Part shown: piece by piece, positions 21,403-21,492 of the stretch
Numbering within the stretch: position 1 is the first letter of the stretch
Layout: each line of letters starts with the position of its first letter
Source: a virus
Strand: one strand, 5' to 3'
IMG/VR virus record: IMGVR_UViG_3300042398_000969
Coordinates: 1 to 64,000 of that record
Length of the DNA stretch: 64,000 nucleotides
The notes under the pieces: generated by a model
What the model saw: the letters and a program-made list of their open reading frames with translations, nothing else
Told to the model about the DNA's origin: nothing
Databases searched by the model: none
Position numbers and translations under genes: made by a program

Positions 21403-21492
21403 CGGGGAGGAAGAGATTCGGACTCTCGATTGAATGTTAAGTCCAATAGCAGCTTCGGAGGCTGTCGGTTTAAACCACTCACCCACCTCCCC
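21403..21492 (-). tRNA. class II tRNA with tRNA-Ser-type body but CCG (Arg) anticodon
   Basis: Acceptor GGGGAGG/CCTCCCC, D-arm GGTG-AGTGGTTTA-AACC, anticodon arm ACAGC-CTCCGAA-GCTGC, 6-bp variable arm ATTGGA/TTCAAT, T-arm GAGAG-TCCGAAT-CTCTT, discriminator G, no full encoded CCA. Confidence 0.85.

Follow-up and report, generated by a model that had tools for sequence, protein, structure and literature searches.

A conserved serine-type tRNA with the arginine anticodon CCG in freshwater jumbo phages that keep CGG as an arginine codon

Results and discussion

A tRNA gene with the anticodon CCG

The DNA analyzed here (the window) is the first 64 kb (32.5% GC) of the 169,422-bp viral record IMGVR_UViG_3300042398_000969, whose CheckV completeness is about 50%. 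It carries a tRNA gene that combines a serine-type body with the arginine anticodon CCG (hereafter the CCG tRNA). The gene lies on the minus strand; an earlier reading of the sequence (the original prediction) gave no strand. ARAGORN reports it as the only tRNA, both of the window and of the record as a whole (c[21402,21492], CCG, 91 nt including one trailing base). The Rfam tRNA model RF00005 matches 21403-21492 (minus) over its full length (1-71) with 50 bits and E=4.8e-10, the gathering score being 29; this match was obtained both in a local scan and in a search of the whole record. A gathering-threshold Rfam scan of the full 64-kb window listed no tRNA, probably because the speed filter overlooked the long arm. 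Long-armed tRNAs in general may drop out through such filters. The 90-nt cloverleaf of the original prediction is borne out by direct reading of the minus strand, on which every feature that it listed is present:

21403-21492, minus strand: tRNA gene, 90 nt, canonical 7/5 cloverleaf with a long variable arm, anticodon CCG and G73 (ARAGORN, Rfam RF00005, sequence reading, conservation)
21456-21458, minus strand: anticodon CCG (cgg on the plus strand) in the loop CU-CCG-AA, invariant in every copy, including those from anticodon-free scans
21449-21465, minus strand: anticodon arm, in which A27 (21465) and C43 (21449) are unpaired, leaving a 4-bp stem in the commonest variant (sequence reading)
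21429-21447, minus strand: variable arm with a 6-bp stem (A-U, U-A, U-A, G-C, G-U, A-U) and a 7-nt loop (sequence reading)
21416-21422, minus strand: T loop UCCGAAU, with C55 (21421) replacing the near-universal U55, invariant in the CCG tRNA family

The acceptor stem has 7 bp, including G1:C72, G2:C71 and G3:C70, and the T stem 5 bp. The discriminator G73 is at 21403 and no CCA is encoded. The D stem has 3 bp with G13/A22, and the D loop AGUGGUUUA places U at position 20. The variable arm lies between U44 and C48 (21428), with no base between its stem and C48. The "TCC" T loop is rare: it is present in 10 of 815 unique phage tRNAs, 6 of which belong to the CCG tRNA family. The single-sequence fold is unremarkable (z = -1.7).

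The tRNA belongs to a co-oriented gene run consisting of a radical SAM gene, one further open reading frame (ORF), a methyltransferase, the tRNA, a 590-amino-acid (aa) ORF and a DUF401 permease. Its immediate neighbours are the following:

21537-22235, minus strand: methyltransferase (Methyltransf_24), upstream and co-oriented, with its stop 44 nt before the tRNA (Pfam)
21507-21522, minus strand: promoter-like box TTTTTTGTTTATATTA, invariant in tRNA-bearing as well as tRNA-less relatives (alignment)
19597-21369, minus strand: downstream ORF of 590 aa with a signal-peptide-like N-terminus, TonB-dependent-receptor-like (language-model feature search)

The tRNA begins 14 nt downstream of the box, after a variable leader (21493-21506), and the box may be a Bacteroidota-style promoter. 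A promoter scan gave no more promoter-like sites than shuffled sequences, including an overlapping sigma-70-like match at 21547-21519 (minus), and a terminator scan found none. The downstream ORF does start at 21369, 33 nt from the tRNA, as originally predicted. The resemblance to a TonB receptor is supported: by language-model features the ORF matches Plug/TonB_dep_Rec clusters (0.99), whose commonest phylum is Bacteroidota, although a Pfam search gave no match. This receptor-like neighbour, by itself, hints at a host among the Bacteroidota. Further upstream, the ORF at 22189-23229 (minus) has no Pfam match at E<=0.001, and the adjoining ORF at 23226-24227 is the radical SAM gene. The methyltransferase was considered as a possible tRNA-modifying enzyme and rejected in this role: the island has several Methyltransf_24/CmcI-like enzymes of sugar type, this one among them, and nothing points to tRNA.

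Conservation and exchange of the CCG tRNA

With both flanking proteins as anchors, 71 related IMG/VR loci were fetched (the methyltransferase anchor yielded 62). According to ARAGORN, the same tRNA, with the anticodon CCG, occupies the corresponding position in 34 of the 71. In all, the gene was found in about 40 related contigs of IMG/VR and metagenomes, every one with CCG, a recurrence far beyond chance. Scans of IMG/VR and of JGI/ENA metagenomes in which the anticodon was left free also retrieved only CCG for this tRNA family; one of them, a D-arm scan of IMG/VR, yielded 118 loci with 950 phage tRNAs, which served for comparison. No copy of this gene in relatives or metagenomes has a normal serine anticodon (NGA or GCU), which the original prediction had named as a finding that would refute it. 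A sequencing error or a private mutation is ruled out by the recurrence of CCG in these contigs, including those from the anticodon-free scans.

Within IMG/VR, the family is limited to one clade of large (jumbo) freshwater or lake phages. Lake-water metagenomes of many studies contain the tRNA stretch. Three assemblies of riverine RNA libraries each contain one contig across 21273-21569, with 0 differences in the tRNA versus about 10% in the flanks. These are assembled contigs rather than reads, and DNA carry-over is possible, so that they show conservation and are no proof of transcription or processing. A pattern scan of 185,579 bacterial species genomes gave no comparable class-II CCG tRNA, only out-of-register tRNA-Leu and chance matches. 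A scan with the neighbouring protein for bacterial counterparts or a clue to the host found nothing, and no similarity of the CCG tRNA to E. coli was found.

The family comprises 8-9 sequence variants, in all of which G73 and G2:C71 are invariant. In one variant the A27-C43 mismatch is restored to A-U. A distant lineage, 92-93 nt long, differs at about 14 positions and has G-U at 27:43. It shows two compensatory changes (G30:C40 to A:U and A52:U62 to G:C), all its stems are paired, and its loops are identical except for one D-loop base. Identity is 96% in the tRNA columns versus 63% in the adjacent 14-22-nt upstream leader. With its shallow diversity, the family gives weak covariation statistics: the two compensatory pairs both come from one lineage, and the observed score was reached in 4 of 500 shuffles.

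These data bear on the possibility that the gene is a neutral or decaying passenger, that is, a duplicated tRNA whose anticodon has mutated and which is carried along by a recombining module of fibre and tailoring genes. Such a passenger would be expected to be present in some close relatives and missing from others, and the A27-C43 mismatch, C55, the low diversity with its thin covariation support, and the rare variants with broken pairs or a D-arm deletion would fit it too. However, a passenger would hardly be better preserved than its own leader, remain unchanged where its flanks differ, or keep its stems paired and its loops preserved in two lineages so far apart. The passenger explanation is therefore quite unlikely, and the decaying gene that the original prediction had allowed for is disfavoured by the leader comparison, the two compensatory stem pairs and the repair of A27-C43 in relatives.

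The tRNA-less relatives keep the same flanks: the box TTTTTTGTTTATATTA precedes the site, and the A-rich leader and the start codon follow it. The tRNA is therefore a clean insertion or deletion in the 5′ leader of the next gene. In these relatives (loci L016, L049, L068 and others) the box lies about 45 nt upstream of the TonB-receptor-like gene. At two loci, L072 and L073, a methyltransferase of only 58% identity is followed by a tRNA and a beginning of the downstream gene that show no difference at all. This identity of the tRNA also argues against a mere passenger. The cassette has evidently been exchanged by recombination; the mosaicism of these two loci implies a recombination junction near the methyltransferase stop. 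The CCG tRNA is a real, accessory and horizontally exchanged phage gene, an optional cassette that is present in some relatives and missing from others.

The larger relatives also have arrays of 22-26 ordinary tRNAs, including Arg(ACG), Arg(UCU), two Ser, two Leu and one Tyr. The CCG tRNA is not part of these arrays and in one relative (G001) lies about 200 kb from them. The arrays (G001:44000-52000, locus L187, and G004:109000-117000, locus L188) are missing from the present half-complete record. One array member, tRNA-Phe(GAA), is aberrant in its T loop, AGCGUAA, which has no T-Psi-C sequence. Neither ArgRS (arginyl-tRNA synthetase, PF00750) nor a class-IIa core of the seryl-tRNA synthetase (SerRS) type (PF00587) was found in five large relatives.

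The location apart from the arrays, 14 nt past a promoter-like box and inside what is a 5′ leader in the tRNA-less relatives, raises the question of a role outside the ribosome. The RNA could be a tRNA-like leader or processing signal of the TonB-receptor-like operon, a decoy against a host defence that attacks tRNAs, or an aminoacyl donor for a tailoring enzyme; as a donor, its anticodon would merely be parked on the rarest codon. The rare C55 in the T loop would fit such a role, and so would the codon data presented below, in which no effect on the CGG codons of the phage itself is seen. On the other hand, the whole cloverleaf, the anticodon loop and the acceptor end are conserved as in a working tRNA, and the tRNA-less relatives have the same operon layout. 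No homologue of the aminoacyl-tRNA-dependent transferases FemAB, Acetyltransf_6 and LPG_synthase_C was found, nor any gene family that strictly co-occurs with the tRNA. A non-ribosomal role is considered unlikely.

A serine-type body

Isotype was assessed by the geometry of the variable arm, by the discriminator and by covariance models. In phage tRNA-Ser, the variable arm has a stem of 5-6 bp and 1 base before the T stem, and the discriminator is G73. The corresponding values are 3 bp, 3 bases and A73 in phage tRNA-Tyr, and 3-5 bp, 2 bases and A73 in phage tRNA-Leu. Long-armed phage Ile, Lys, Cys and Pro tRNAs have stems of 3-5 bp, 2-6 bases before the T stem and the discriminator of their own isotype. 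The CCG tRNA has a 6-bp stem, 1 base before the T stem and G73, a combination that among about 100 phage class-II tRNAs is seen only in tRNA-Ser (about 46).

Isotype models made here from phage tRNAs (Ser, n=70; Tyr, n=54; Arg, n=53) scored the CCG tRNA at 72.2 bits for Ser, 44.8 for Tyr and 27.4 for Arg, with the qualification that the training tRNAs were partly chosen for the same D arm as the CCG tRNA. For reference, true array Ser tRNAs score 66-93 bits with the Ser model and true Arg tRNAs 53-87 bits with the Arg model; the Arg-model score of the CCG tRNA is below that of almost every other array tRNA. A20 is nearly invariant in the 53 phage tRNA-Arg, and the CCG tRNA has U20, so that the original prediction was right in noting the absence of this arginine element. 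Its assignment of a serine-type body is likewise upheld by the arm geometry, the discriminator and the isotype-model score. The D arm belongs to a type common to phage Tyr and Ser tRNAs, which differ at position 20b: the Tyr tRNAs have A there, the Ser tRNAs G or U. With U at 20b, it is identical to the D arm of many phage Ser(UGA/GCU) tRNAs.

Two other origins were considered. A tyrosine origin was suggested by the first BLAST match, a phage tRNA-Tyr, and by the D arm, which nearly equals that of the tRNA-Tyr of one relative (G004). It is excluded by position 20b, the arm geometry, G73 and the Tyr-model score. A leucine origin is excluded by the D-loop spacing and by the A73 of tRNA-Leu.

Bacterial ArgRS depends on A20 and C35. 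SerRS recognizes the long arm and G73 and not the anticodon (PMC7609411). By these identity rules the CCG tRNA should be serylated. Our tentative best explanation, held at somewhat short of even confidence, is that host SerRS charges it and that this leads to a limited, tolerated Arg-to-Ser ambiguity at a very rare codon. The tRNA would be transcribed as the first element of the TonB-receptor-like operon transcript, trimmed by host RNase P and 3′ nucleases, and given its CCA by the host. SerRS, blind to the anticodon, would read the 6-bp arm set against C48 together with G73 and G2:C71 and attach serine. ArgRS would charge the tRNA poorly because A20 is missing. On the ribosome, the tRNA would pair with CGG and perhaps weakly with CGA via its 4-bp anticodon stem (an idea from PMC13092985). 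The ambiguity would be limited by competition with host tRNA-Arg and by the rarity of CGG (only 0.2-0.7 per 1000 codons), and it would not amount to recoding of phage genes or to a strong anti-host weapon. Consistent with a low cost to the phage, CGG makes up 16 of the 53,457 codons in the record; it is the second-rarest Arg codon after CGC (13).

An arginine-like anticodon arm

Two sets of observations, one from the tRNA itself and one from the use of CGG, speak against serine charging. First, the CCG tRNA departs from phage tRNA-Ser in several details. It has G3:C70, versus A3:U70 in at least 90% of 70 phage tRNA-Ser; the rare C55 departs from the serine consensus; and the loop of the variable arm has 7-9 nt in the CCG tRNA family versus the usual 4 in tRNA-Ser. 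The anticodon arm bears the strong arginine marks C35 and G36. Its stem (ACAGC/GCUG) and loop flanks match exactly only some tRNA-Arg(UCU) (3/63) and tRNA-Gly(UCC) (2/36), and none of the phage Ser, Tyr and Leu tRNAs (Fisher p=0.004). The match to phage tRNA-Arg(UCU) suggests that the CCG tRNA may be a chimera of a serine body and an arginine anticodon arm.

The same details may be read in favour of a functional tRNA-Arg. Host ArgRS could accept the tRNA through C35, G36 and G73, while G3:C70, C55 and the large variable loop would weaken recognition by SerRS, and the gene would supply CGG decoding for fibre cassettes (codon compensation). Apart from the anticodon, the anticodon arm equals that of some phage tRNA-Arg(UCU). 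Among the tRNAs in the arrays of the relatives are Arg(ACG) and Arg(UCU), but none that reads CGG. A long arm in itself does not dictate serine, since there are phage tRNAs of class-I isotypes that have long extra arms as well. Against this stand the missing A20, the low Arg-model score and the architecture, since in place of a class-I body there is a 19-nt extra arm with exactly the serine geometry, unlike the arms of the long-armed Ile, Lys, Cys and Pro tRNAs. The codon evidence, which also bears on this alternative, is given below; taking all of it together, a functional tRNA-Arg is the main alternative but rather unlikely.

Many phage tRNAs have long extra arms although their anticodons are of class I (Ile UAU, Lys UUU/CUU, Thr UGU, Cys GCA, His GUG, Asn GUU, Pro UGG). 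These tRNAs (loci L278-L395, for example L302, L306, L336, L381, L383, L385 and L387) keep the discriminator typical of the amino acid of their anticodon, and the long-armed Ile(UAU) tRNAs have a common arm motif, CCAGAUUAG. At another locus, L300, a Ser-like tRNA has the Leu anticodon GAG and G73.

Use of CGG in the phage genomes

Second, the phages use CGG as arginine. The CGG codons read in the window are these:

21169-21171, minus strand: CGG in the 590-aa TonB-receptor-like ORF, at a conserved Arg (alignment)
29458-29460, minus strand: CGG in the giant fibre gene, aa 1624, ...GDY[R]TG... (in frame)
29989-29991, minus strand: second CGG in the giant fibre gene, aa 1447, ...SDTDS[R]VL... 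(sequence reading)
42397-42399, minus strand: CGG in a carbamoyltransferase, aa 349, where homologues have AGA, AGG, CGA, CGT or Lys codons (alignment)
5854-6339, minus strand: three CGG (aa 269, 391 and 430) in a PcfJ-like ORF (5293-7143), where the aligned residues of relatives are R or K

At the motifs of the giant fibre gene, AGA or CGG is found elsewhere at the same site. CGG also recurs at the same Arg of repeated fibre and propeller motifs, namely KN[R]VDSIE, GGDISxT[R]T, TTNIA[R]LATTG, VTGLNLT[R]IADG, IKSPxGx[R]ANRP and IHGT[R]TSAIN, in the window (29200-34329), elsewhere in the genome (64949-83086, L001) and in five relatives (G001, G002 and G005-G007). These CGG-bearing motifs are mostly missing from the tRNA-less relatives.

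In clustered and aligned proteins of 13 large relatives and about 150 loci, the other residues at CGG columns are Arg in 45-49%, Lys in 13-17% and Ser in 2-3%, as at AGG, CGA and CGT; as a control, TCG columns contain 51% Ser. The share of CGG sites in columns that are at least 80% Arg is 0.35-0.37, equal to that of other Arg codons. With tRNA-bearing sources only (26 CGG sites), the fractions are 0.42 for R and 0.02 for S, and 0.27 of the sites are at conserved Arg. At the recurring motif sites of fibre and propeller genes in tRNA-bearing phages, the only codons found in exchange with CGG are AGA, CGA, CGT and AGG. In comparisons between tRNA-bearing genomes, which differ at about 40% of their synonymous sites, CGG was unchanged in 15 of 31 cases; AGA stood in its place in 13, CGT in 2 and AGG in 1. 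Other rare Arg codons are kept in 5-57% of cases, so that CGG is retained at least as well.

These column, motif and turnover tests agree with the original prediction that the phage keeps CGG as Arg. As far as codon data can tell, CGG is arginine in these phages and the genetic code is unchanged. A reassignment of CGG from Arg to Ser, either complete or as the early step of codon capture that had been proposed, draws its only argument from the serine-type body. It is close to untenable and already contradicted by the codon data: Ser at CGG columns is far below its level at TCG columns, CGG and other Arg codons have equal shares of their sites in conserved Arg columns, the motif sites swap it only with Arg codons, and there is no trace of CGG at Ser positions. 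Since the phages still use CGG as Arg, the CCG tRNA would be a possible natural mistranslator or a rule-breaking tRNA rather than a sign of code change.

CGG is also more frequent, not less, where the tRNA is present. Its frequency is 0.23-0.73 per 1000 codons in 7 tRNA-bearing contigs and 0.05-0.37 in 6 contigs without the tRNA at that site, with 0.06 in one near-complete tRNA-less genome. The pooled values are 0.42 vs 0.14 per 1000, about 3-fold higher with the tRNA (Fisher p=3e-10; Mann-Whitney p=0.02). At 755 shared conserved-Arg columns there is no depletion of CGG: it accounts for 17 of 3326 codons in tRNA-bearing genomes versus 9 of 3391 in the others (p=0.12), in 6 vs 9 columns. A mistranslator aimed at host mRNAs, as originally proposed, predicts that tRNA-bearing phages purge CGG, and this prediction fails both in the pooled frequencies and at the conserved Arg columns.

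For a functional tRNA-Arg, the pooled excess, the clustering of CGG in fibre and propeller genes near the tRNA and the uniform reading of CGG as Arg are favourable points. However, the excess is lost at the shared conserved-Arg columns. This suggests that most of it is due to fibre modules accompanying the tRNA, and it may reflect such linkage rather than selection. Moreover, the tRNA-less relatives also have CGG at conserved Arg sites, so that the host can already read CGG.

A further possibility is programmed ambiguous decoding, in which an Arg/Ser mixture in virion host-recognition proteins would hedge the host range. The sites would be the CGG Arg of KN[R]VDSIE, GGDISxT[R]T, TTNIA[R]LATTG and IKSPxGx[R]ANRP, and the CCG tRNA lies in the same late-gene region. 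We regard this as very improbable. Structure and codon usage pull in opposite directions, and nothing in the genomes suggests that an insertion of serine is exploited or costly.

Comparison with known systems

Several known systems show some parallelism with the CCG tRNA. In the CUG-clade yeasts, tRNA-Ser(CAG) is a serine-type tRNA that reads the codon of another amino acid, with ambiguous or reassigned decoding; the former CUG codons disappeared and others appeared at Ser sites. There the genome followed the tRNA, whereas CGG stays at Arg sites in the phages. The nev-tRNAs of nematodes have class-II bodies with Gly or Ile anticodons, and there is little evidence of a code change. The CCG tRNA resembles them in joining a long-arm body to the anticodon of a class-I amino acid; the nev-tRNAs, however, are eukaryotic, of leucine type and not phage-borne. 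Like the phage supply tRNAs in the arrays of the relatives, the CCG tRNA is phage-borne, has no encoded CCA and reads a codon that is enriched in nearby late structural genes. It differs from them in its position outside the array, in the disagreement between isotype model and anticodon, and in the missing A20.

The allo-tRNAs are natural bacterial and phage tRNAs that carry serine marks (long arm, G73) and non-serine anticodons, including Arg GCG (Mukai et al. 2017, PMC5389517; PMC7609411), and they are expected or have been shown to insert Ser at other codons (PMC5389517; PMC7609411). The CCG tRNA likewise has serine identity marks and a non-serine anticodon. In contrast to the 8/4 or 9/3 acceptor/T stems of the allo-tRNAs, it has the canonical 7/5 arrangement, and it differs further in its CCG, in C55, and in being an optional cassette of one freshwater jumbo phage clade.

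Codetta has indicated reassignments of CGG to Gln in Peptacetobacter, and to Trp in Anaerococcus and Onthovivens, and of CGA/CGG to Trp in Absconditabacterales (PMC8629427 as summarized in PMC13092985). A CCG tRNA with the identity marks of another amino acid, a low-GC genome and rare CGG are common to these cases and the phages. However, the genomes found by Codetta show the new amino acid at CGG columns and the phages do not, and the phage tRNA has a Ser-type body, of which no case is known for CGG. Serine-type tRNAs with foreign anticodons are already known (allo-tRNAs including Arg GCG, and the CUG-clade yeasts). In the literature we found no description of a phage-borne, conserved Ser-type CCG tRNA of canonical 7/5 form that is an optional cassette in genomes keeping CGG as Arg.

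Conclusions

The CCG tRNA presents a conflict: the identity rules point to charging by SerRS, and the genomes that carry it indicate that CGG means arginine. Charged with serine, it would be a viral case of a natural tRNA that mistranslates and is conserved. Charged with arginine, it would be a tRNA of class-II shape that evades SerRS and that ArgRS accepts although A20 is missing. In that case the textbook identity rules would have to be revised, and the tRNA would provide a new scaffold for genetic-code engineering. The CCG tRNA also shows that mismatches between isotype and anticodon in phage tRNAs can be selected features and not annotation noise.

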